Shown: positions 2,140 through 40,249 of the stretch, one piece after another
How positions within the stretch are numbered: the first letter of the stretch is position 1
How the letters are laid out: each line of letters starts with the position of its first letter
Virus record (IMG/VR): IMGVR_UViG_3300040801_001445
Coordinates: 1 to 40,249 of that record
DNA length: 40,249 nucleotides
Source of the DNA: a virus
Reading direction: 5' to 3' (one strand)
Position numbers and translations under genes: made by a program
The notes under the pieces: model-generated
The model's database searches: none
Told to the model about the DNA's origin: nothing
The model's input: only the letters and a program-made list of their open reading frames with translations

Positions 2140-2414
2140 AGCCCCACTCTCTCGCGGATGTCCCGCACCCAACGCAACAGCTCCAGCATCCGGGCAGCCT
2201 CCTCGTCCAGCCGGGCAGCCAGCTCGCACGAGCACTCGGGCTTGGGACTCGGGGGTGCCTCCTCGAACGACACCAAGGCGGGTCTCAGCACCGGCTGCAA
2301 GGCGTCCACAAGCAGCGCCAGCTCGTCGTTCACGCTGGTGATGTGCTCCTCCAGCAGCGTCAGCACGCCCAGGACCGTGCGCGCCTCCTGCTGCCCCATC
2401 TGAGACTTCTCCAT
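2136..2414 (-). CDS. Hypothetical protein, 92 aa, first gene of the leftward operon
   Basis: ORF-track 2136..2414, with a GAGGAGCAGGAGC SD region directly upstream of the ATG. Confidence 0.75.
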   Translation of the reverse strand: MEKSQMGQQEARTVLGVLTLLEEHITSVNDELALLVDALQPVLRPALVSFEEAPPSPKPECSCELAARLDEEAARMLELLRWVRDIRERVGL

Positions 2415-2440
2415 GCTCCTGCTCCTCTGTGGTCTGGCAC

Positions 2441-2512
2441 CTCAGAGCATCTGAGATGCTGAGGGCAGTCTGGGGGAGGGAAATCTGGGGGTCAAGCGGC
2501 TGAGATGCTCAG
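2441..2512. promoter_or_regulatory. Operator-like cluster of CTCAG/CTGAG pentamers, with a 10-mer CTGAGATGCT repeated at 2451..2460 and 2500..2509
   Basis: Seen directly. CTGAG-ATG-CTCAG forms a dyad at 2500..2512 and CTCAG-N5-CTGAG another at 2441..2455. The cluster lies 27-98 bp upstream of the first leftward gene. Confidence 0.4.
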
Positions 2513-2540
2513 GGGGTTGCGGGGGGAGTTGTGGGTGGGG
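2463..2540 (+). other. Two canonical G-quadruplex-type motifs, 2463..2491 and 2512..2540
   Basis: The G-runs read G3-N6-G5-N1-G3-N6-G5 and G5-N4-G6-N6-G3-N1-G4 on the plus strand. They flank the 2500..2512 dyad. Confidence 0.35.
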
Positions 2541-2777
2541 ATGGAAGCTCCGATCGACGACGCGGCTGTTTCCCCGGCCGGGGGTCCGCGCGGTGGGCGG
2601 AGGCGGGCTGCGGGCCGTCGTCGCACCCTCGGGCGTCGGCCAGGATCAATGATCCGCTTTCAGGGGGCGCATTTAACATAATACGGATTGCACGAAGGGC
2701 CGCATCCCTTGCATATCAATGGGTTACTGGTATCTCACATAGCCGATGGGTGCGGTAGTGCGCCGTTCCACGTCCTG

Positions 2778-2829
2778 GTACGTGTAAACGTACAGGGTCA
2801 AAGCCCCTTGCCCTTCAATGGTTTACACG
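2778..2829. repeat. Inverted pair of the genome-wide motif: CGTGTAAAC (2781..2789) and GTTTACACG (2821..2829), separated by 31 nt
   Basis: Both 9-bp arms are perfect. The left arm sits within a local dyad, GTACG-TGTAAA-CGTAC (2778..2793). Confidence 0.85.
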
Positions 2830-2960
2830 GTCCAGGCACGTCCAGGGGCGTGGGCCCGGCCCCGGCGCGGCGCCTTCGCGGCCTACTCGGAACCATCGAC
2901 ATCCCCGAACAACCACCCCCCGATCATCAGTCTTTCCCGATCCAAGCCGCTTCCTACTCG

Positions 2961-2993
2961 CCTCCCTCTTCCCCCGACTTCCTCCCTCTTCCC
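2961..2993 (+). repeat. Direct repeat of the 13-mer CCTCCCTCTTCCC (2961..2973 and 2981..2993) within a polypyrimidine tract
   Basis: Seen directly. The plus strand is pyrimidine-rich from about 2900 to 2995. Confidence 0.8.
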
Positions 2994-3464
2994 AGGCATG
3001 CCGCGGGCTCCCGCTGTGCTGCGCCCTGGGGCGCGTTCCTGCGTCCGCCTGGCCCTGGCCCGTTTCAACAGCATCGACGCTCTGGCGGCGTTCCTGGAGC
3101 GCTCACAGCGTCCGTGCCTGTCGCGCATGCTGGAACATTCCATCGCGCCGTCTCGCGCATGGGTGCGGAGCGGTTTCCTGGGGGCTTCTGGTGAGGTCGA
3201 GCGGGAGTCGAGGCGGGCAATGTCACATTGCAGAGCGGGGGCGCCTGGAGCGGCTTGCGGGGGCCTTCCCTGTAGTGGCTCTGCTGTAGCGGGTGCGAGG
3301 GTACCTACTCACTCCCTCGGCATCCTTCTCACGGTGTACCCTCCCCGTTCCGCCCGTCACGCTACACGTCCCCATCACGCTCCTGGCAGACCGTTGGTCG
3401 GGCCGCTCGTCGGGAGAGCGTTTAAACTCTGGACGGGGAGCGGCTGAGCAGCTACGGTTCAGGG

Positions 3465-3487
3465 GTCAGCGTGAGGCTGACGCTTCC
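3465..3487 (+). terminator. Hairpin GTCAGC-GTGAG-GCTGAC followed by a C/T-rich tail
   Basis: A 6-bp stem is followed by GCTTCC, immediately 5' of leader motif copy 1. Confidence 0.3.
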
Positions 3488-3505
3488 TCTTCACGGACTC
3501 GGAGA
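3488..3505 (+). promoter_or_regulatory. Conserved early-gene leader, copy 1: TCTTCACGGACTCGGAGA
   Basis: Lies 6 nt upstream of the ATG at 3512. UCUUC can pair with GGAGA (the SD), leaving ACGGACUC in the loop. Confidence 0.6.
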
Positions 3506-3511
3506 AACGCC

Positions 3512-3778
3512 ATGACCATCACCGACCGCGACACCCGAACCGCACGGGTCGCCCGCCTCGCCGCCAGCAAGCTGATGCTCGCGGAGCACGACATCCAGGC
3601 CGTCGCCGGAGAGCTTCTGAAGGCCGCGGCCCACGCGCCGGATCTGGCTCTCGTTGAAGCCTACGCGCTCCGCGATGAAGTCACGGCGCTGCGGCGCCGG
3701 CTCGCAATCCTGGCTCGCAGCGTGGAGAACGGCGACGAGTACCTTGGCGAATCCGGCATGGGCCCGGCCGCCGAGTGA
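3512..3778 (+). CDS. Hypothetical early protein, 88 aa
   Basis: Tail of ORF-track 3293..3778 from MTITDRDTRTARVARLAAS, preceded by the conserved leader and SD. Confidence 0.7.
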   Translation: MTITDRDTRTARVARLAASKLMLAEHDIQAVAGELLKAAAHAPDLALVEAYALRDEVTALRRRLAILARSVENGDEYLGESGMGPAAE

Positions 3779-3786
3779 CCGCACCA

Positions 3787-3820
3787 GGGCCCGGCGCCGA
3801 GCCGGGCCCGCCCTTCTTCT
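3787..3820 (+). terminator. Intrinsic-terminator-like hairpin GGGCCCGGC-GCCGA-GCCGGGCCC followed by a CCCTTCTTCT tail
   Basis: A perfect 9-bp GC stem with a 5-nt loop and a T/C-rich tail, directly after the stop at 3776..3778. Confidence 0.5.
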
Positions 3821-3834
3821 TCACGGACCGGAGA
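3818..3834 (+). promoter_or_regulatory. Conserved early-gene leader, copy 2: TCTTCACGGACCGGAGA
   Basis: Lies 8 nt upstream of the ATG at 3843. It has the same stem arms with a 7-nt loop containing GGA. Confidence 0.6.
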
Positions 3835-3842
3835 ACGCCACC

Positions 3843-3929
3843 ATGACCCTCGCCATTCTCGCACTCTGCACCGTCACCGGCTGGACCCTGGGACGCGCCC
3901 TCACGCGCGCCGTCGGCCTGGCCCGCTAA
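3843..3929 (+). CDS. Small hydrophobic peptide, 28 aa (MTLAILALCTVTGWTLGRALTRAVGLAR)
   Basis: The conserved leader and SD lie upstream. Third codon positions are almost all G/C. Confidence 0.55.
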   Translation: MTLAILALCTVTGWTLGRALTRAVGLAR

Positions 3930-3939
3930 ACCGCTTGCA

Positions 3940-3980
3940 GCGGGGCCGCTGAGCAGCTACTCTCGGCCCCGCTTTCATCA
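3940..3980 (+). terminator. Intrinsic-terminator-like hairpin GCGGGGCCG-N15-CGGCCCCGC followed by a TTTCATCA tail
   Basis: A perfect 9-bp stem. The loop carries the 13-mer GCTGAGCAGCTAC, which also occurs at 3443..3455. Confidence 0.5.
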
Positions 3981-3998
3981 TCTTCACGGACTCGGAGA
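3981..3998 (+). promoter_or_regulatory. Conserved early-gene leader, copy 3: TCTTCACGGACTCGGAGA
   Basis: Identical to copy 1, 7 nt upstream of the ATG at 4006. Confidence 0.6.
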
Positions 3999-4005
3999 TT
4001 CAACC

Positions 4006-4662
4006 ATGGCTACCCCTTCCGCCCTGACCACCGACCGCGAAGCCTGGCTCACGGAAGCCGCTTCGCTGCTCCTCGACACCGTCGTTGCTCCCGCTTGCCA
4101 GGCCCTCGGCCACGAGTACACCAGCGCCCTGGCCGACCTGGGCGACTCCTGGCGCGTCGCCTGCGGCTGGCCCATCGGCTCGCGTGCCGGCGCCCGCCGC
4201 GGCATTGCCGGACAGTGCTTCGCGCGCTCCGCCAGCGCTGCCGGCCTGGCCGAAGTCTTCATCTCGCCGCGGCTTTACGAGGGCCCGCAGGTTCTCGCCA
4301 CGCTTCTTCATGAGCTGCTCCACGCTGTGGACGACTGCCGCGACGGACACCGTGGCCGGTTCGCTGCCATGGCTCGCGCCGTGGGCTTCGTGGCGCCCCT
4401 CACGGAACTGCACCTCACGGACGCGCTCACGGCCGAGCTGGCCGAGATGGCCGAGCTGCTGCCGCCCTATCCGCATGCGGCCCTGGACGTGAACGCCGGC
4501 CGCAAGAAGCAGGGCACGCGCATGGTCAAGGTCGAGTGCGGCGCCTGCGGCTTCCTGTTCCGCACTACGGCCAAGCATCTGGCCGCCCTGGACGAGTCGA
4601 GCCCCTGCCCGGCCTGTCACCAGACGGAATCCCTGCTGATCGACGGAAGCGTCGGGGAATGA
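4006..4662 (+). CDS. SprT-like zinc metalloprotease domain protein with a C-terminal zinc ribbon
   Basis: ORF-track 4006..4662. It has an HELLHAVDD (HExxH) motif and C-terminal CGACG...CPACH cysteine pairs. Confidence 0.7.
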   Translation: MATPSALTTDREAWLTEAASLLLDTVVAPACQALGHEYTSALADLGDSWRVACGWPIGSRAGARRGIAGQCFARSASAAGLAEVFISPRLYEGPQVLATLLHELLHAVDDCRDGHRGRFAAMARAVGFVAPLTELHLTDALTAELAEMAELLPPYPHAALDVNAGRKKQGTRMVKVECGACGFLFRTTAKHLAALDESSPCPACHQTESLLIDGSVGE

Positions 4663-4728
4663 CCCCGGCGCCGCCGGGGGCCCTGGTCACAGCGACAGGG
4701 CCGCCGGGGGCGCCGAGCCCCATCCCCA

Positions 4729-4746
4729 TCTTCACGGAATCGGAGA
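4729..4746 (+). promoter_or_regulatory. Conserved early-gene leader, copy 4: TCTTCACGGAATCGGAGA
   Basis: Lies 7 nt upstream of the ATG at 4754 and is preceded by GC hairpins (for example GGCCCTG-N10-CAGGGCC at 4679..4702). Confidence 0.6.
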
Positions 4747-4753
4747 ACCGACC

Positions 4754-6121
4754 ATGACCGCACAAGCATCCATCATCACCAGCGAAGCGCGCGAGCGCCT
4801 CGGCCGGCCCGCGTGCCGCCAGGCCCTGGAGTCGTTCCGCGAGGCCCTTGGTCTCGTCGGCAGCGAAAGCGTGTCCGGCGTGAGCCTGGCTACGCTCGTC
4901 GATCTGAAAAACAATCCGCAGGGGACCAGCGCGAAGCGCGAGGACGCGAAGCGCGCCATGCGCCGGCTGTGCACAGCGGCTGGCTACCGATGGGCGGACG
5001 TGGAATTCGACACCATGGCGCTCGTGCTGCGCGTCGCCGAGGACCTTCACGGAATGCCCGGCGCGGAGCCGGAGCCCCAGGCGGAGCCCGAGCCCGAGCC
5101 CCAAGCCGAGCCGGAGCCGGCCCCCGAGCCGGCCCCCGAGCCGGAGCCGGAGCCGGAGCCGAGCATTGCGTCCCTGGTGGGCCCCGGCGCCGAGCCCGAT
5201 GCGGCCACGGCCCTGGCCGACGCAATCCGCCGCATCGCTGGCAGCGCCTCGGCGCCTGTGGACGAAGGCCGCGTCATCGAGCTGATCCGCCAGCATGCGG
5301 GGCCGCGGCAGACGACCACCACGCACCGGATCGAGATCCCCCAGGCGTCCGGCGATCCGGTCGTCATCGAAGGCGCGCACCCTGCCGTGCCGCGGCTGGT
5401 GCAGGCGCTGGCCGCAGGCCGCGAGCGCGTGCGCCGTGTAAACGTCCTCATGGTGGGCCCCGCCGGATCCGGCAAGACGCACGCGGCCGAGCAGGCGGCG
5501 GAAGCCCTGTCCGTGCCCTTCTACAGCATCGGCGCCGTCGACGATGCGTTCAGCATCCTGGGATTCCGGGACGCACGCGGCGAGTACCAGGCGACCGCGT
5601 TTCGCCAAGCATGGGAAGAGGGCGGCCTGTTCCTCTTCGACGAGATGGATGGCAGCGCGCCCGAGGCGCTGCTTGTGGTGAACCAGGCGCTGGCGAACGG
5701 GTGCATGGCATTCCCGGACGGAATGGTGAAGCGTCACCCGGAGTTCTACTGCATCGCCGCCGCGAACACTTACGGGCACGGCGCGGATCGGCAGTATGTG
5801 GGCCGCTCGCAACTTGATGCGGCCACGCTCGACCGCTTCGCCACCATGGCGTTCGACTATGACGCCACGCTAGAACGGAAGCTTGCTGGCGATACGGAAC
5901 AGGCGTCGCGCTGGTGCGACTACGTGCAAGCGGTCCGCCAGGCTGCGCGCACGAGCGGCGCGCGCATCATCGTCAGCATGCGCGCGAGCATCATGGGCGC
6001 CGATCTGCTCGCCGCCGGCTGGTCCGTCGAAGAAGTCTGCGAGTCCGTCCTCTGGAAAGGCTGCCCGGCCGACACGCGGGCACAGCTTGAATCCTCCGCA
6101 GGCAAGCCCACGGGAGTCTGA
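4754..6121 (+). CDS. AAA+ ATPase (AAA_5, MoxR/CobS-like) with an N-terminal Glu-Pro repeat linker
   Basis: Walker A is MVGPAGSGKTH and Walker B is LFLFDEMD. The downstream AAANTYG...LDAATLDRF region is typical of AAA_5. ORF-track 4754..6121. Confidence 0.8.
   Translation: MTAQASIITSEARERLGRPACRQALESFREALGLVGSESVSGVSLATLVDLKNNPQGTSAKREDAKRAMRRLCTAAGYRWADVEFDTMALVLRVAEDLHGMPGAEPEPQAEPEPEPQAEPEPAPEPAPEPEPEPEPSIASLVGPGAEPDAATALADAIRRIAGSASAPVDEGRVIELIRQHAGPRQTTTTHRIEIPQASGDPVVIEGAHPAVPRLVQALAAGRERVRRVNVLMVGPAGSGKTHAAEQAAEALSVPFYSIGAVDDAFSILGFRDARGEYQATAFRQAWEEGGLFLFDEMDGSAPEALLVVNQALANGCMAFPDGMVKRHPEFYCIAAANTYGHGADRQYVGRSQLDAATLDRFATMAFDYDATLERKLAGDTEQASRWCDYVQAVRQAARTSGARIIVSMRASIMGADLLAAGWSVEEVCESVLWKGCPADTRAQLESSAGKPTGV
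5063..5161 (+). repeat. Imperfect tandem GAGCCN/GCCCCN repeats encoding AEPEPQAEPEPEPQAEPEPAPEPAPEPEPEPEP
   Basis: Seen in both the DNA and the ORF-track peptide. Confidence 0.9.
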
Positions 6122-6123
6122 CC

Positions 6124-7023
6124 ATGGCGTACTTCACCGACAAGCCTGAAGAGGCGCGCGCGGTCCTGGGATTCCCGGCGCAGCGCGCGGCAATCTTCGA
6201 AAGCGTGTCCGACTTCGCCTCGTGGGCGATCCAGGCGGCACCCTCGGCGGGCGCGAGCGTCACGGTTGAGGCTTCAGACGATTGGGACTATGGCGTGGGC
6301 TTCGCTGGCATGCTGGAGCTGGCCCGCGTCGGGGGATGGCAGGAAGGCGCCGACCGCATGGCGTCCCTGTCCCTGACTCTGCCGGAAGCCGAGAGCGTGG
6401 ACACTGTGCCCAAGCGGGCGCGCCGCGTCGCTGGCTCGCGTCCGCACGCGGGAGCGGCAGCGGCCGGCTCGCCGCGCGCCATGATCCGACGCGTCCCCAC
6501 GGACCAGGCGTCCACCAGCGCAGGCGTCCGCGTGCTGCGCGTCGTGCTCCCCTGGGGGAAGTCTGCGCACGTAGAAGGCGACGCGTGCGAGCGCTACGGC
6601 GCCGCCCTGGTGGAATGCATCGACGCCACGGAAGCGGCCGGCATTCGCTGTGAAGTAGTGCTCCAGCAACAAACCGACACCGGGACCGTCGCGCGCGTTA
6701 CGGCCAAGCATGCCGGAGAGCACGTAGACCGGGCCGCCCTGGCGTTCCTGATCGCGCACCCCGCGGCCACGCGCCGGCTGCGCTTCCGCGCGCAGGAAGG
6801 GCCCGAAGGATCCTGGCCGTGCGGAAGCTACGGCGGCCCCACCACCCAGCCGTGGGCTCGCGGCGAGCGCGAGTCCGGCGCCCTGGTTTTGCCCTACATG
6901 AGCCCAGGATTCCCGCGCAAGGTCGAGACCATGGCCGAGGCGCGCGCCTACGTGCGGGCGCTCTTCGAGCAGCACATTGCCCGCCTGGCCGCGGAAGCGG
7001 CGGCGGATCCGGCGGCGGCCTGA
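6124..7023 (+). CDS. Hypothetical protein, 299 aa, partner of the AAA ATPase
   Basis: ORF-track 6124..7023. It starts 3 nt after the ATPase stop and has protein-like composition. I saw no MIDAS DxSxS motif. Confidence 0.7.
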   Translation: MAYFTDKPEEARAVLGFPAQRAAIFESVSDFASWAIQAAPSAGASVTVEASDDWDYGVGFAGMLELARVGGWQEGADRMASLSLTLPEAESVDTVPKRARRVAGSRPHAGAAAAGSPRAMIRRVPTDQASTSAGVRVLRVVLPWGKSAHVEGDACERYGAALVECIDATEAAGIRCEVVLQQQTDTGTVARVTAKHAGEHVDRAALAFLIAHPAATRRLRFRAQEGPEGSWPCGSYGGPTTQPWARGERESGALVLPYMSPGFPRKVETMAEARAYVRALFEQHIARLAAEAAADPAAA

Positions 7024-7074
7024 GCGGGCCGCCGTTCACCATCCACCACCATCCATCATTCGGAGCGTTTAAAC

Positions 7075-7437
7075 GTGACCAGACACCAACATCCCATGGC
7101 CCGCCAGCTACGCCAGCGCCCGACGCCGGCCAGCATCCCTGACCAGGCGGCGGCCCTTGTGAGCGCCTACAGCGGCCGCCAGGGGCGGCCGAGCGTGACC
7201 CTGTACCGGGACGCAGGGATCCAGGCTTGCGCCTGTCTAGCGCGCACCCTGGCCGAATCGGAAGGGAGCAAGGCCGGGACCATCGGCCTGGAGCCGTCCA
7301 GGCTGCTCCGCCGTGCGTCGAAGGGTGAGGCGCTGACCGTCCACCAGCGCGCCGCCGTGCGCGCGGAGGCCGGCAGCATCTTGCGACTCTGCGGCTGGTC
7401 CGTGACGTGGCGGGACCGCGCGGAGCTGGACCAGTGA
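7075..7437 (+). CDS. Hypothetical protein, 120 aa, GTG start
   Basis: ORF-track 7075..7437. A GGAG lies 9 nt upstream, and CGTTTAAAC sits between the SD and the GTG. Confidence 0.55.
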   Translation: MTRHQHPMARQLRQRPTPASIPDQAAALVSAYSGRQGRPSVTLYRDAGIQACACLARTLAESEGSKAGTIGLEPSRLLRRASKGEALTVHQRAAVRAEAGSILRLCGWSVTWRDRAELDQ

Positions 7438-7667
7438 CGGCGCCCGAGCGGACGGACCGGGAGGGCGCCGTGCGCGCCCGCCCTGGCGACGCGTTCACCG
7501 TGGACCAGATACCGCCCGACCGGAACGGCCGCGGAGGCTACGCCATTGTGCGCCTGGCGACGGACACGGACCCGGAGTCCGTCGTCGCCAGGCGCAACAC
7601 GTACTGCGCCGCATGGATGGCGCTTCAGAGTCTCGCCGGCGGCGAGACCATCGCAGCGGAGGAGTGA
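7434..7667 (+). CDS. Hypothetical protein, 77 aa, GTG start
   Basis: ORF-track 7407..7667 trimmed to the GTG at 7434, which overlaps the upstream TGA (GTGA) and has a GGAG 7 nt upstream. A start at 7407 cannot be excluded. Confidence 0.5.
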   Translation: MTAPERTDREGAVRARPGDAFTVDQIPPDRNGRGGYAIVRLATDTDPESVVARRNTYCAAWMALQSLAGGETIAAEE

Positions 7668-7669
7668 CC

Positions 7670-7882
7670 ATGGCCCTTCGATTCACGAGACGAGACGGCG
7701 AGGGATTCTGGATCGGCGACGCGTTCGTGCGCGTGGCCCTCGGCGGGACGCACGGCGGCCGGCAGCAAATCGGAGTCAGCGTGACGGCCGACCGGGCCGT
7801 GCGCGTGCTCCGCGAGGAGCTGGACGACCGACCGGCTCCCGACCGGCGCCCGGAATGCGCGGAGGGCCCTGGCCATGAATGA
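7670..7882 (+). CDS. csrA: CsrA/RsmA-like RNA-binding protein, 70 aa
   Basis: The peptide MALRFTRRDGEGFWIGDAFVRVALGGTHGGRQQIGVSVTADRAVRVLREEL aligns by eye with E. coli CsrA ([47 protein letters not shown]). The blocks TRRxGE, IGD, IGV and REE are shared. A strong GGAGGAG SD lies upstream. Confidence 0.6.
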   Translation: MALRFTRRDGEGFWIGDAFVRVALGGTHGGRQQIGVSVTADRAVRVLREELDDRPAPDRRPECAEGPGHE

Positions 7883-8381
7883 CCCGCTGCTGACCCCGCT
7901 CGCCGGGCGCCTGGCCCGGCGCCGCATGGGCGACACGCTGACGCTGTGGCGCCGGACGCTGGCCCTGCTCGGCGGCCCGGCTCGCTTGGCCCTGCCGACG
8001 CTCGCCCGGCCCTGGCCGGACGAGTCCGTGCCCGTGCCCACGGACCGGGAGTGTCGGGCGCGCCGCTGCCTGGCGCTGCCGGGTCCGGTCCTCTGGATGG
8101 CCGCGCCCGTGGGCACGGACGGCCAGCGCGGAGCCGTGACCCTGGACTACGTGCCCGGCCGCCGGAGCGGGCAATGGCGCGCGACCGTGCATCGGTACGG
8201 CGGGCGCCTCGTGCGCACGGCAGACTCGCCGTTCATCGCGCTGGCCCGCACCGTTTACACGGCCCAGGAATCCTGGCGCCCGGCGCTGCGGCTCGGCGAC
8301 CTGAAGCACGCGGCGGAGCTGGCCGCGCGCACCTGGCACGGCGACGCGGGCGACGCGGACCCGCGCTTCCGTTCTGAATAG
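7875..8381 (+). CDS. Hypothetical protein, 168 aa
   Basis: ORF-track 7875..8381. It overlaps the end of the CsrA-like gene by 8 nt and ends in the repeated TGAATAGACGA element, using the TAG. Confidence 0.6.
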   Translation: MNDPLLTPLAGRLARRRMGDTLTLWRRTLALLGGPARLALPTLARPWPDESVPVPTDRECRARRCLALPGPVLWMAAPVGTDGQRGAVTLDYVPGRRSGQWRATVHRYGGRLVRTADSPFIALARTVYTAQESWRPALRLGDLKHAAELAARTWHGDAGDADPRFRSE

Positions 8382-8394
8382 ACGAACCACCACC
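8374..8394 (+). repeat. Gene-end repeat, copy 1: CTGAATAGACGAACCACCACC
   Basis: Identical to the 21-mer at 8560..8580 and closely similar to 9076..9095. Confidence 0.9.
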
Positions 8395-8410
8395 CAACGG
8401 GAGACCCACC

Positions 8411-8563
8411 ATGGAATCCTTCATCACGCACCTGGCCGCTTTCGTGGTCGGAATCACCACCGGAGTGCTGTACCTGATCGCCGTCGGAGCTGCGACGGCA
8501 GCCATGCTGTGGGCGTGCTCCGCCTGCGCCGCAGCCGTGCGCCGAGCGCGCGACCGTTCCTGA
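8411..8563 (+). CDS. Small membrane protein, 50 aa (MESFITHLAAFVVGITTGVLYLIAVGAATAAMLWACSACAAAVRRARDRS)
   Basis: Manual translation. A GGGAGA SD lies upstream and third-position G/C is high. It is below the ORF-track size cut-off. Confidence 0.55.
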   Translation: MESFITHLAAFVVGITTGVLYLIAVGAATAAMLWACSACAAAVRRARDRS

Positions 8564-8580
8564 ATAGACGAACCACCACC
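8560..8580 (+). repeat. Gene-end repeat, copy 2: CTGAATAGACGAACCACCACC
   Basis: Here the TGA is the in-frame stop of 8411..8563. Confidence 0.9.
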
Positions 8581-8593
8581 AGAGGAAGAAGCC

Positions 8594-9079
8594 ATGAGCC
8601 ACAACTACAGCGACGACGAGCACAATGAAGCGCTGGAACTGTCACGAAAGCTGGTGGCAGACCTGAAAGACTGGTCCGAGCGGGACAGGCTGCACTACTT
8701 CATCGAACACTTCGCGCCGTGCGTCATGCCCGCGGCGCTGGAGCTAGGCGAGCGCCGCGAGGACGCGAAGCGCCAGGGCGATGTGACTGCCGGCGCCATG
8801 ATGCTGGCCGCACTGGCCGGCTTCCTGAAAGGCGCGCTCGAAGCGGAGGGTGCCGTCGGCATGCGCGACGGACTGACTGCCGACGAGCGCGACATACTCC
8901 ATGAGGTTTACACGAACACCGCGGAGGTCACCTACGAGTGCTCGCGCGTGGCCGGCATCGACTTCGCCGTGTTTCAGCGGCACGGCAAGTCGAAGCTGAC
9001 GGATCCCGACGAGATTGCGAAGGCGCTGCGACGCAAGCTGGACGAAGAGGGCGACGAGGGCGATCAGCTCCCGTCCTGA
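8594..9079 (+). CDS. Hypothetical acidic protein, 161 aa, last gene of the rightward operon
   Basis: ORF-track 8594..9079, with an AGAGGAAG SD upstream. Confidence 0.75.
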   Translation: MSHNYSDDEHNEALELSRKLVADLKDWSERDRLHYFIEHFAPCVMPAALELGERREDAKRQGDVTAGAMMLAALAGFLKGALEAEGAVGMRDGLTADERDILHEVYTNTAEVTYECSRVAGIDFAVFQRHGKSKLTDPDEIAKALRRKLDEEGDEGDQLPS

Positions 9080-9687
9080 ATAGACGAGCCACCACTTGTG
9101 ACGGCGGCGATGTCGGCCGCCGTCACAGCTTCGGAGCACGGCGCCTGGCAGCGCTGCGCTTCGATGTCCCCCGGCGACAGCCACAGCCCGCACGTTCCAC
9201 ACGCTCGCCCCGGCGGCACGTTGCGGACTGCTCCCTGCGGCAGCGTCACCACCTCCACGAGCCCGGTCTTCTTCGCCTCCCACATGGCCTGCGAGAGCGC
9301 CCTGGTGTAGCGCGTCTCCAGTGTCGCGAGCGGCGGGTTCCACCAGCCCCTCGGCACATTGCTCATCGCCTTGCGGCGGGGCGGCAGGAACTTCGGCAGG
9401 TGCGTGTAAACGAGCAGACGAGACGCAAGCCCATGGTGATGCATGAGCAGAGCATGGATCCCGCGCATGAGCCGGGCCTGCCGGAACCGATGGCCGTGCA
9501 GCTCTGACGAGAACCACAGCTCGGGCGCGATGGTGCGCATCAGCACGATTTCGCGGCGCATCGCCGCAGCCCGGCGGTCGTCCAGCTTGTCCGCAGGGAA
9601 CGGGCGAGGCTCGCCGGCCCCGCCCTCGTGTGCCGGACGCTCGACGCTCGTCGGGTCCGCGAAGAAATTGGCTCTGGCCGGCCGCAT
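9064..9687 (-). CDS. Hypothetical protein, 207 aa, last gene of the late operon
   Basis: ORF-track 9064..9774 trimmed to MRPARANFFADP. The ATG at 9687 lies 1 nt after the tailspike stop. The gene overlaps the convergent gene 8594..9079 by 16 bp. Confidence 0.55.
   Translation of the reverse strand: MRPARANFFADPTSVERPAHEGGAGEPRPFPADKLDDRRAAAMRREIVLMRTIAPELWFSSELHGHRFRQARLMRGIHALLMHHHGLASRLLVYTHLPKFLPPRRKAMSNVPRGWWNPPLATLETRYTRALSQAMWEAKKTGLVEVVTLPQGAVRNVPPGRACGTCGLWLSPGDIEAQRCQAPCSEAVTAADIAAVTSGGSSIQDGS
9076..9095 (+). repeat. Gene-end repeat, copy 3: CTGAATAGACGAGCCACCAC
   Basis: One mismatch to copies 1 and 2 over 20 nt. The TGA is the in-frame stop of 8594..9079. Confidence 0.85.
9097..9127. 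terminator. Hairpin at the convergence of the two transcription units: TGTGACGGCGGC-N7-GCCGCCGTCACA
   Basis: A perfect 12-bp stem at the point where the plus and minus operons meet. There is no clear U-tract. It lies inside the 3' end of the 9064..9687 reading frame. Confidence 0.5.
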
Positions 9688-9688
9688 C

Positions 9689-11218
9689 TCAGCGCGTGAT
9701 CCCGATGGCGGCCAGGTCCGCGAGCAGCGTGCCCACCACGTCGGCAAGCTCGGCGACCGTGGTCGAGTCCGCATCGAACGCCCGGTCCGTCGTGACGTTC
9801 GTGGCCGTGTAGTCCTGCGCGATCTGCTGGTTGATCTTGTTCGTGATCGCCCCCGATCCCACCTCCACCTCGCGGTTGCGGTAGGCGACCAGCGTGCCGA
9901 CCGTGCCGCCGCTGGTGTCGAGCACGTCGGTGATGTCGCAGCCGGTGCTGCCGGTGCCGGCGATGAGCACGTTGTCTGCGATGGCGCCGTCGATGGTGCC
10001 GCTGACCAGTTGAAACACGTCGGTGATGCTCCAGTCGCTGGCGCTCTCCTCGTCGCCGATGCAGTTCGCGTGTGCCTGGAGGTTCACGAACCGGCCGGAG
10101 CCGGGGTCCATCTCCAGCACATGGTCGATGGTGCCCGAAGGCCGGACGTGGTTGCCCCGGAAGGACAGCGCCGTGGCTGGCACCGTGGACGTGGAGCCGA
10201 TGGACACTAGGTCGTAGTTCGCGGAGCCGGACGCCGGGCAGGTGAAGAAGTTGCCGTCGATCCGCACGCCGTAGCAGCGGCGCGCGAACACCATGAAGTC
10301 GCCGTCGTTTGCCTTGTCGCGCGGCGCGAACGTGCAGCCCAGGATGTTGAGGATCGCGCCGTCGATGGCCGAGATGCCACCGATGCTCTGCGTGAAGCCG
10401 CAGCCCTGCACTTCTACCTGCTGTTCGTCGAAGTCCTCGAAGATGATCCCGCCGTAGGGCACGTTCGACACGGCGTTGACGGTCTCGGAGAACGTGGTGC
10501 CGGTGACGCCGCAGGCGGTGAACGCGCAATCGCGCACGCGGGTCTGACCGCCCACCTCGAAGTCCATGCCCCATGCGTAGGTGGTGTCCACGCGGCAGCG
10601 CGTCACGGTCAGGTCGCCGCACGAACGACCCACCATGCCCTGGTGGTTGTCCGTGAACACGCACTCGTCCACCGAAACGTGCGTGCCCGGCCCCAGGTAC
10701 AGGCCGCACCCGCCGCCGCGCGTTGTCTGCGAGTTGATCGTGGTCGATCCCTGGCGCTTGAAGTGCTCGAAGCGGCAGTTCCGGATGTGCGTGCTGCGGG
10801 GGAAGCCGGGCACGGCGTCGCGCGTCAGCGCCAGGCCGGCAGCCTCGGCCGTGCCTGTGGCGCTGTCGGTGCCCTCGAAGCCGAGCCCTTCGATTTCCAG
10901 TTCGTCGGCGTCGATGATCGTGATGCCCACGGCGCCGTCGCCGGTGCAGTTGAACACGACGTGGCCACTCGCCCCGAGGATGCGCTTCGGTCCCGTCGCC
11001 GTAGACCAGTCGATGCTGACGGGCGTCGTGAGCAGCGGCGTGCCGGGCGGGAAGTACAGCTCGCCCACGTCGTCGTTGTCCCGCAGCGCGGTCAGCGCGG
11101 CGAGCACGGCGGCGCCGTCGTCGGTCGTGCCGTCGCCGGTGACGCCGTAGTCGGCGGCCGAGATGGAACCGTAGCGCCGCGCGTCGAAGCTGGAGCCGCG
11201 TGCCTTCGTCATGACCAT
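9689..11218 (-). CDS. Tailspike or tail-fibre protein with a right-handed beta-helix (pectate-lyase-like) fold, a probable polysaccharide depolymerase
   Basis: ORF-track 9689..11218. It has periodic beta-helix-type repeats (NCRFEHF, CVFTDNHQG, VTRCRVD, VRDCAFTACG, VQGCGFTQS, ILGCTFAP) and lies at the distal end of the virion module. Confidence 0.65.
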   Translation of the reverse strand: MVMTKARGSSFDARRYGSISAADYGVTGDGTTDDGAAVLAALTALRDNDDVGELYFPPGTPLLTTPVSIDWSTATGPKRILGASGHVVFNCTGDGAVGITIIDADELEIEGLGFEGTDSATGTAEAAGLALTRDAVPGFPRSTHIRNCRFEHFKRQGSTTINSQTTRGGGCGLYLGPGTHVSVDECVFTDNHQGMVGRSCGDLTVTRCRVDTTYAWGMDFEVGGQTRVRDCAFTACGVTGTTFSETVNAVSNVPYGGIIFEDFDEQQVEVQGCGFTQSIGGISAIDGAILNILGCTFAPRDKANDGDFMVFARRCYGVRIDGNFFTCPASGSANYDLVSIGSTSTVPATALSFRGNHVRPSGTIDHVLEMDPGSGRFVNLQAHANCIGDEESASDWSITDVFQLVSGTIDGAIADNVLIAGTGSTGCDITDVLDTSGGTVGTLVAYRNREVEVGSGAITNKINQQIAQDYTATNVTTDRAFDADSTTVAELADVVGTLLADLAAIGITR

Positions 11219-39825: not shown

Positions 39826-40103
39826 CAGTGCAGCTCCCCGCTCTCGGCGAGCGACTGCGCCTGGACGCTCCAGAACACGTCGCGCATCTCGGCCGTGATG
39901 GACATGACCTGGTTCACGGTGAACGGCAGCGAGGCCGGCGTCAGGCACACGAAGCGCTCGATGAAGTCGGGCGCGTCGCGATGGCTGACCATGACCACGA
40001 GATGCTGGTGCCCGTCGATGGCCTGCGGCACGAACGCCCACTGGCCCTGCCAGCCGTCCTCGGTCAGATCCTCCAGCACATCGGATGCCGTGAGTCCGGT
40101 CAT
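39825..40103 (-). CDS. Hypothetical protein, 92 aa
   Basis: ORF-track 39825..40103. The ATG overlaps the stop of the junction-spanning gene (ATGA). Confidence 0.65.
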   Translation of the reverse strand: MTGLTASDVLEDLTEDGWQGQWAFVPQAIDGHQHLVVMVSHRDAPDFIERFVCLTPASLPFTVNQVMSITAEMRDVFWSVQAQSLAESGELH

Positions 40104-40249
40104 GCCTCATCCTCCCCGCTATCCGTGCCGATCGCTGCGCGAGCGCGATACACGCAGTCCATGTCGCGCTCGTATCGGCGCATCATGTCGGGGTACTGCT
40201 CGCGGTCGGGGTACTCCTGATCGACTCGCTCGGCCAGATCGTCCGCGCA
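40100..40249 (-). CDS. 3' part of the junction-spanning 92-aa ORF (the same gene as 1..246)
   Basis: The stop lies at 40100..40102. The frame is open to the window end and in phase with 1..246 once the 117-bp duplicate is collapsed. Confidence 0.7.
   Translation of the reverse strand, partial: CADDLAERVDQEYPDREQYPDMMRRYERDMDCVYRARAAIGTDSGEDEA
40133..40249. repeat. Right copy of the 117-bp direct terminal duplication
   Basis: Identical to 1..117. Confidence 0.95.

Follow-up and report, generated by a model that had tools for sequence, protein, structure and literature searches.

The closest described counterparts of the element treated here are bacterial leaders, such as those of glgC and hcnA, that are repressed by CsrA or by RsmA-RsmE. 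According to the literature, the site of these proteins is a GGA (core CANGGAYG or RUACARGGAUGU) located in the loop of a hairpin and commonly overlapping the ribosome-binding site. This work deals with a short leader, TCTTCACGGA(C/A)(T)CGGAGA, which is repeated before the first four rightward genes (g1-g4) of a phage contig, the IMG/VR record IMGVR_UViG_3300040801_001445, analysed over its whole length of 40,249 nucleotides (nt) and referred to below as the window. Judged from sequence, the leaders are proposed to be CsrA/Rsm-type translational operators that would repress the early genes, the likeliest binder being the product of gene 8 (g8) of the same operon, and a probability of about 0.55 is given to this reading. 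The leaders share with their bacterial counterparts the GGA in the loop, a GGA overlapping the Shine-Dalgarno sequence (SD), the CANGGA core and the presence of a CsrA-family protein. Unlike the bacterial targets, those found here are the early genes of the phage itself, and the operator is present in near-identical form four to five times in one operon. It is also placed about 20 nt before the start codon with its GGAs 6-7 nt apart, and the divergent candidate regulator is encoded in the same operon.

CsrA/RsmA homologues are already known in phages (Pseudomonas F116, Burkholderia DC1 and CSP3, PTXU04 gp28 and Vibrio J26), and CsrA homologues occur in many phages, plasmids and ICEs (integrative conjugative elements). 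Those of phages have been called highly similar to bacterial CsrA, and the proposal is that they act on the host, CRISPR-Cas being one example (Campa et al.). A functional-genomics paper of 2025 describes the role of phage CsrA in the life cycle as previously untested and reports that its knock-down cuts plaque size. In contrast to these homologues, the protein described here is divergent and has a candidate set of cis-targets in its own operon. The open-access literature searched yielded no account of a phage whose own genes carry CsrA-type operators, nor of a set of targets inside the phage for the known homologues. The protein family and the type of RNA site are known; what is new is a viral operon that combines a repeated, dedicated operator with its own divergent CsrA.

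Two other phage systems invite comparison. RegA of bacteriophage T4 is an RNA-binding protein that represses the translation of several early mRNAs at their ribosome-binding sites; the RegA sites are AU-rich and poorly conserved. The likeness is in logic alone: the protein family is unrelated, the sites described here are near-identical GGA hairpins, and no RegA-family match was found among the rightward genes in Pfam or PHROGs. The Cluster K mycobacteriophages carry 11-19 copies per genome of a 13-bp sequence, GGGATAGGAGCCC, known as SAS (start-associated sequence), which contains the SD and lies 3-7 bp before start codons. It is asymmetric, has one orientation and occurs at non-structural genes only; involvement of a factor from the host or the phage has been suspected. 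Among repeated motifs at the starts of genes it is the nearest one described, although it serves here as an analogy only. The leader resembles SAS in being a repeated start-site motif that contains the SD and keeps a single orientation. However, its sequence is not GGGATAGGAGCCC, the host belongs to another phylum, and a candidate factor can be identified here whereas none is available for SAS.

Copies of the leader, its relatives and its predicted fold

Counted with the pattern TCTTCACGGA-N(1-3)-CGGAGA, the leader occurs exactly four times in the window, always on the + strand, and 100 dinucleotide-preserving shuffles gave 0 matches. An earlier note on this DNA had placed four copies before the first four rightward genes, each ending 6-8 nt upstream of an ATG; the positions proved to be exact and the measured distances fall within that range (Table 1). 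A covariance model made from the leaders finds these four copies alone in the whole window (the next-best candidate reaches 11 bits, E about 0.9), and each of its 12 matches with E < 0.01 is a leader. Rfam gave no family that reached its gathering threshold, nor, within 2300-9300, any family up to E 1. The later genes of the rightward operon start from plain SDs.

The same note had described TCACGGA as locally enriched within the early mRNA. The enrichment holds (20 occurrences in the window against 6.6 expected, eight of them on the + strand within 3491-5053), but the internal copies lie at 4049, 4400, 4415 and 5047, so that the first three coordinates had been 8 nt off. These three are CTC-ACG-GAx codons (Leu-Thr-Glu/Asp) of the SprT-like gene g3; the internal copies are therefore largely a by-product of coding and were largely rejected as further operator sites. 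Two leftward genes next to the control region (starts 1015 and 40110/40103) present ACGGA 6-9 nt upstream of a GGAGG-type SD, at 1010-1029 and 40101-40126 on the - strand. These sites have neither a UCUUC arm nor a predicted hairpin, and the covariance model is silent there.

Relatives of the phage are scarce. Megablast of 25 kb against the GenBank phage collection gave no close relative, and blastn against GenBank phages found just actinophage SprT-like genes, with 66-82% identity over short stretches. No close relative was present in the IMG/VR, GTDB and JGI contig sets searched, and when the SprT-like and AAA proteins served as queries, IMG/VR and JGI metagenomes returned only relatives 35-49% identical, none of them with the motif. 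Scans for the exact motif produced 65 single matches in IMG/VR and 82 in GTDB genomes, with no locus holding more than one copy, and 14 of the 15 GTDB matches inspected are inside coding sequence (for instance FFTESEKR of Lysobacteraceae and VFTDPEIAM of Arthrobacter). These database matches were rejected as real leaders and are attributed to chance, being single copies that, in the inspected GTDB cases, lie nearly all within genes.

Metagenomic relatives of the same clade, designated L191, L194, L189, L193 and L192, came from protein searches. The genes of L191 (8.8 kb) show 74-90% nucleotide identity with those of the window, most of them 83-90%, and this contig has five leaders: orthologous ones before g1-g4 and a fifth before an extra gene of 103 amino acids (476-787) that is not found in the window. 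Three copies are present in L194 (2.3 kb). L189 (5.3 kb, about 60% amino-acid identity) has three leaders with different stems. Before the orthologous AAA gene it keeps CTTC and GGAG around the loop ACGGATT (CTTCACGGATTGGAG) although the flanks cannot be aligned, before the SprT-like gene it has GCCC-ACGGA-GGGC, and before g6 it has CUGC-ACGGAGUA-GCAG. At the position of copy 4, L191 and L194 carry AAGGA. Copy 3 is identical at 18 of 18 positions in L191 and L194, whereas the adjoining 7-nt spacer between SD and ATG is identical at 2 of 7 positions in L191. The two smallest contigs, L193 (1.6 kb) and L192 (0.9 kb), span just the region of the CsrA-like gene, and the more distant L089 and L190 show no motif, and no CsrA gene in the available DNA. 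The leader, whose conservation in related phages had been set as a test, was thus found in 3 of 3 retrieved relatives, and the leader set comprises 15 leaders from four genomes (four in the window, five in L191, three in L194 and three in L189) with nine distinct sequences.

The earlier note had also predicted that the leaders hide the SD in a UCUUC/GGAGA stem and display a GGA in the loop, and it had called this stem weak. Folding places this stem, with its ACGGAnnC loop, in the minimum-energy structure of copies 1-3, at -3.8 to -4.5 kcal/mol, which bears out the weakness of the stem. Copy 4 departs from the prediction. There a competing UCGG-AGAA-CCGA hairpin (4739-4750, + strand), which also pairs the SD but with the SD-ATG spacer, is the minimum-energy fold, and it is mutually exclusive with the GGA-loop hairpin. 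This alternative hairpin of the AAA leader changes in a compensatory manner, from UCGG/CCGA in the window to UUGGA-GCAU-UCCAA in L189 (about 776-789). The GGA-loop hairpin is also the minimum-energy fold for two extra leaders of L189, B3 and B6.

In all 15 leaders A-N-GGA occupies the 5' edge of a loop of 5-8 nt closed by a stem of 4-6 bp. Loop positions A1, G3, G4 and A5 are fixed and position 2 is C or A, while positions 6-8 vary, as does the length of the loop. Counted from the start codon, the A of ANGGA is 18-20 nt upstream in 14 of the 15 leaders (15 nt in B6 of L189), and the loop GGA is 6-7 nt upstream of a second GGA that forms part of the SD GGAGA. The placement of the motif was compared over the rightward modules of the four genomes, scoring a position at the 5' edge of a loop of 5-8 nt with at least 4 bp. 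ANGGA located no more than 32 nt before a start codon is found there in 15 of 19 cases, against 5 of 76 elsewhere (Fisher 4e-10), and when distinct leader sequences are counted once the figures are 9 of 13 against 5 of 76 (2e-6). As for the stem, pairing holds in 98.2% of cells when the 12 closest leaders are taken, compared with 40-73% in slid controls, and the inner four pairs are never broken. The outermost pair changes from U-A to C-G, a compensatory replacement, in two L191 leaders, and L194 shows one one-sided change from U.G to C-G. Read from this alignment, the pattern of variation is that of an RNA hairpin that binds a protein.

In a more distant contig, L022, whose AAA protein is 37% identical, a different four-copy intergenic cassette was observed at 9306-10433. 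A hairpin (GGCCAGCG...GCTGGCC) is present in three of its four copies, and TAAYCGYATCAGCG, GGAGG and a start codon in all four. Repeated cassettes made of a leader plus an SD, with other sequences and without the GGA-loop design, may be common in the wider phage group.

Gene 8 and the CsrA family

The g8 product matches the Pfam family PF02599 with E 1.1e-5 and 25.7 bits, just below the cut-off of 27, whereas the L189 ortholog passes with 27.8 bits. Phmmer matches it to solved CsrA/RsmA structures in the PDB, and hhalign of the four-member clade against Escherichia coli CsrA gave 95.5% probability and 43% identity over 51 columns. The AF2 monomer model is all-beta (pLDDT 71.8), and the top six PDB matches obtained with Foldseek are all CsrA/RsmA, although weak (E 0.06-0.45, TM 0.39-0.48). 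The JGI annotation of the gene reads 'sRNA-binding carbon storage regulator CsrA'. In the alignment FTRR stands opposite LTRR and VLREEL opposite VHREEI, with TRR, GE, IGD and REE kept. R7, R8, R48, E49 and E50 are invariant in the clade, and the arginine aligned to R44 of E. coli CsrA, described as essential for RNA binding, is kept. By these profile, alignment and model comparisons, g8 is judged to be a divergent member of the CsrA family.

Proteins of the g8 type are extremely rare. Only four were found in a collection of 5.8 billion proteins, all of them at the same place in syntenic contigs, and g8 is syntenic in L189, L191, L192 and L193. Tblastn with the g8 protein against the GenBank phage collection gave no match. 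Pfam and PHROGs searches of the neighbouring small genes and of the leftward early genes provided no regulator candidates.

The proposed circuit and the rival explanations

The comparison with bacterial sites is the basis of the proposed mechanism. Set against the Rsm consensus CANGGAYG, CACGGAC(U/C) agrees at 7 of 8 positions; among the sites of the leaders, CACGGACU and CACGGACC match at 7 of 8 and CACGGAAU at 6 of 8, with CA-N-GGA always kept. Since the leaders match CANGGAY, have a second GGA in the SD and are located inside the ribosome footprint, binding by a CsrA-family protein and a block of initiation are proposed. The weak 5-bp hairpin would pair the SD GGAGA with UCUUC and display A-N-GGA at the 5' edge of the loop; the protein would bind the GGA sites of the leader, stabilise or cover the hairpin and in this way prevent access of the 30S subunit. 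The most likely binder would be the g8 product, possibly together with host CsrA. Genes 1-4 would be made first, and their translation would be shut off once the g8 product had built up. Because g8 lies about 4 kb downstream of the promoters and has no operator, its product should accumulate after genes 1-4 have been expressed. It is inferred here that transcription starts from the promoter-like elements P1 and P2, that the protein binds the leaders, that its effect is repressive and that it comes at the time described; the sign could also be the opposite one, with activation through melting of the stem. The fact that the CsrA-like protein is encoded in the same operon suggests that the phage probably controls the translation of its own early genes by means of a viral version of a global regulator of bacteria. 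The shared post-transcriptional operator suggested in the earlier note is thus supported by conservation, by the invariance of A-N-GGA, by the kept pairing and by the CsrA-family gene of the operon. A further step, in which a self-contained viral Csr circuit has arisen through co-evolution of a phage-specific CsrA paralogue with an A-N-GGA operator on every independently translated early gene, is more tentative and is held at somewhat below even odds.

Several points weigh against CsrA-type repression by the g8 product. The 3' part of the consensus is unmatched, the G at +3 being absent from every leader. The two GGA motifs of each leader are just 6-7 nt apart, and one CsrA dimer is reported (Mercante et al. 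2009) to bridge sites separated by at least about 10 nt. In addition to its low energy, the hairpin shows no gain in stability over shuffled sequence (z about 0), its 3' arm is the SD and would be constrained in any case, and the covariation consists of one compensatory and one one-sided change within a few closely related genomes. Independently initiated rightward genes at 7075, 8413 and 8594 do not have the hairpin. Besides, g8 is very divergent, with 13-28 bits against NCBIfam equivalog cut-offs of 70-73, in addition to its shortfall at Pfam (25.7 against 27). Being so far under the equivalog cut-offs, it is taken as a divergent phage-specific paralogue, neither an ortholog of bacterial CsrA nor a recently captured host csrA. 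Binding of the leaders and regulation by g8 are predictions from sequence, and the host, known from the binning of a metagenome-assembled genome (MAG; Halieaceae) alone, is uncertain.

CsrA is common in Gammaproteobacteria, and the contig was binned with a gammaproteobacterial MAG. The sole binder might thus be the CsrA of the host, in which case the leaders would tie early translation to the Csr/Rsm state of the cell (growth phase, cell density) and the phage protein would act on host mRNAs or Csr sponge RNAs instead of the leaders. The leader site does match the bacterial consensus sequences, and host manipulation is the role put forward for phage CsrA homologues in the literature. Nevertheless, this explanation is considered unlikely: the host assignment is weak, operator and gene co-occur in all four relatives with the relevant DNA and are both missing from L089 and L190, and the phage protein, in contrast to the 'highly similar' homologues of Campa et al., stands at a distance from bacterial CsrA and therefore seems to have a specificity of its own. 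The kept pairing in every copy, and the compensatory change of the second SD-pairing hairpin of the AAA leader between the window and L189, could also be accounted for by an element acting in cis, in which a weak SD-sequestering hairpin tunes translation rate or mRNA stability, the loop GGA is incidental and no trans factor takes part. Such an element would leave the invariant A-N-GGA of the loop, over nine distinct sequences and four stems, without explanation, and the stem is too weak to matter much alone, so that this possibility appears distinctly unlikely.

It is very unlikely that the leaders are nothing more than copied ribosome-binding cassettes, that is, junctions spread by duplication or recombination as genes were acquired, with a good SD as their role (UCUUCACGGA being the upstream part). 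The extra gene of L191 arrived with a copy or acquired one, and copies 2 and 3 of that contig are near-identical, as would be expected from copying; however, the motif has been held while the adjoining spacers diverged, L189 has rebuilt the same ACGGA-in-loop design on unrelated stems, and later genes of the operon make use of plain SDs. A different trans factor is highly improbable, be it a phage small RNA (for example from 2895-3045) that pairs with the UCUUC arm, an unrelated RNA-binding protein or an RNase. Its attraction is that the 1.1-kb non-coding region contains, on the - strand, the densest GGA tract and, on the + strand, CCTCCCTCTTCCC twice, but this tract folds worse than shuffles, Rfam gives no match and the contigs of the relatives do not extend to it. 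The outer bases of the leader form an imperfect inverted repeat (TCTTC-N8-GGAGA) and the genome uses other dispersed DNA motifs, which would suit a site that works at the DNA level, either as the operator of a DNA-binding repressor or as a promoter element that might serve leaderless transcripts. That reading is hardly credible because every copy of the leader is on the sense strand and at a set distance of 6-8 nt from the ATG, because its arms match at four of five positions as DNA and at five of five as RNA through a G-U pair, and because the compensatory change preserves RNA pairing. Moreover, the sigma-70 scan found no promoter and the conserved promoter-like elements lie separately upstream. 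With no TANNNT at -12 to -7 from the ATG, the leader motif itself was rejected as a promoter.

With respect to the significance of repression by a viral CsrA, the genome offers an alternative to host manipulation, namely that the targets of such a protein are in the phage's own early operon. If this is true, a virus-encoded CsrA would for the first time have a set of cis-targets and a defined role in the life cycle; it would then be a RegA-like timing device beyond a tool for host manipulation, and the case would amount to a second, independent invention of the T4 RegA strategy with a borrowed bacterial regulator. It would also provide, in the ANGGA hairpin placed about 20 nt upstream of the start codon, a signature to seek in other CsrA-encoding mobile elements, and might aid thinking on unexplained start-associated repeats such as mycobacteriophage SAS. 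The operator is short (18 nt), repeated and naturally varied among relatives, which makes binding and reporter work straightforward.

Genome context, upstream elements and other repeats

An exact direct repeat of 117 bp is present at both ends of the contig (1-117 and 40133-40249), and the contig is therefore regarded as a complete, circularly assembled genome of about 40.1 kb. Its G+C content per 1-kb window is 58-74%, mostly 65-71%. The - strand codes for a podovirus-type portal, tail-tube proteins, a large virion protein and tail spikes, as well as for RecE/RecT-like proteins and an O-like replication protein. The phage is podovirus-like, and its portal is about 33% identical to those of HTVC010P-type pelagiphages. 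The deposited record bins the contig with a MAG of Halieaceae (Gammaproteobacteria), and this host assignment, of which binning is the sole source, is weak. A non-coding region of 1.1 kb (2414-3511) separates the long leftward arm from the short rightward module (3512-9079), which is made up of eleven genes (g1-g11). The features of this module are collected in Table 1.

Table 1. Leaders, genes, hairpins and promoter-like elements of the rightward module (window coordinates).
Feature	Position	Strand	Description
P1 promoter-like element	3430-3458	+	putative; TGGACG, 17 nt, TACGGT; L191 has TGGACA-17-TACGGT
Hairpin GUCAGC-GUGAG-GCUGAC	3465-3481	+	at predicted 5' end of P1 transcript
Leader copy 1	3488-3505	+	UCUUC-ACGGACUC-GGAGA; ends 6 nt before g1 ATG (3512)
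g1	3512-3778	+	88 amino acids, no known family; L191 ortholog at 159-416
Hairpin after g1	3787-3809	+	9-bp GC hairpin
Leader copy 2	3818-3834	+	UCUUC-ACGGACC-GGAGA, 7-nt loop; ends 8 nt before g2 ATG (3843)
g2	3843-3929	+	28-amino-acid hydrophobic peptide (MTLAILALCTVTGWTLGRALTRAVGLAR); conserved in L191 and L194
P2 promoter-like element	3935-3963	+	putative; TTGCAG, 17 nt, TACTCT; precedes g3
Hairpin before copy 3	3939-3973	+	GC-rich
Leader copy 3	3981-3998	+	ends 7 nt before g3 ATG (4006)
g3	4006-4662	+	SprT-like zinc protease, C-terminal zinc ribbon
Hairpin after g3	4666-4715	+	long, GC-rich; conserved in L191 and L194
Leader copy 4	4729-4746	+	UCUUC-ACGGAAUC-GGAGA; ends 7 nt before g4 ATG (4754)
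g4	4754-6121	+	CobS/MoxR-like AAA+ ATPase
g5	6124-7023	+	DUF7192
g6	7075-7437	+	
g7	from 7434	+	
g8	7670-7882	+	70 amino acids, divergent CsrA-family protein
g9	from 7875	+	
g10	from about 8413	+	
g11	from 8594	+	

The earlier note had described a GC-rich, terminator-like or processing-site-like hairpin before each leader. All four window copies do follow such a hairpin, but in the relatives it is not obligatory and a terminator scan passes one of the four. In L191, leader copy 3 (785-807) begins 1 nt past the upstream stop codon with no hairpin between them; given that some leaders of L191 have no hairpin directly upstream, the GC hairpins are considered a feature separate from the leader, and the 'terminator plus leader' as a single unit was rejected. 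At the place of the first hairpin, L191 has GUCGGC/GCCGAC, a compensatory change from A-U to G-C.

The elements P1 and P2 are homologous and are located inside a 37-nt repeat (family D9); their transcripts are predicted to start near 3465 and 3970. The counterparts of P2 are TTGCAC-17-TACTAT in L191 and TTGCGC-17-TAGCAT in L194. A strict sigma-70 scan of the window did not call P1 or P2, and for this reason their promoter status is only inferred. A 31-nt repeat is found twice (2446-2476 and 2495-2525, + strand) immediately upstream of the first leftward gene (- strand, start 2414). It carries the palindromes AGCATC-TGA-GATGCT and CTGAG-ATG-CTCAG, and CTGAGC recurs in the P1/P2 repeat (GCTGAGCAGCTAC); these repeats may be operators or hairpins of the 5' untranslated region in the divergent control region.

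Within the same non-coding region, GGA is denser on the - strand of 2895-3045 than anywhere else in the genome (12 in 150 nt; mean 3.3, standard deviation 1.85). This tract is purine-rich, is predicted to be unstructured (z +1.5) and contains GGGAAGAGGGAGG twice. On the + strand, the two CCTCCCTCTTCCC copies are anti-SD-like and similar to the CCUCUUC arm of leader 1. If transcribed, this tract could be a CsrA sponge or a pairing RNA.

In the AAA gene, a periodic repeat of 12/18 nt (5052-5171, + strand) codes for a low-complexity linker rich in Pro, Glu and Ala (EPEPQAEPEPEP...), which joins the N-terminal domain to the AAA+ domain and gives rise to a spurious Pfam match to PARP repeats. The rightward module also has a second repeat family, CTGAATAGACGA(A/G)CCACCAC, with three copies against 0 expected (8374-8393, 8560-8579 and 9076-9095, + strand). 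Each copy overlaps a stop codon, that of g9, g10 or g11; the first two precede the SDs of g10 and g11, the third precedes a convergent terminator hairpin (9098-9131), and all three are kept in L191 (5570-5589, 5776-5795 and 6298-6317).

Finally, the window has 21 sites for the 9-mer CGTTTAMAC, against 0.07 expected; most of them read CGTTTACAC, and a G often comes next. Its sites are distributed genome-wide over both strands, in coding and intergenic DNA (for example 3419, 7066/7067, 9404, 21350, 33646 and 39191), and several of them are just upstream of an SD or of P1. Five copies are present in L191 and five in L189, and it is absent from the more distant L089, L190 and L022. From its distribution, this 9-mer resembles a dispersed site that acts at the DNA level, for a protein such as a methylase.

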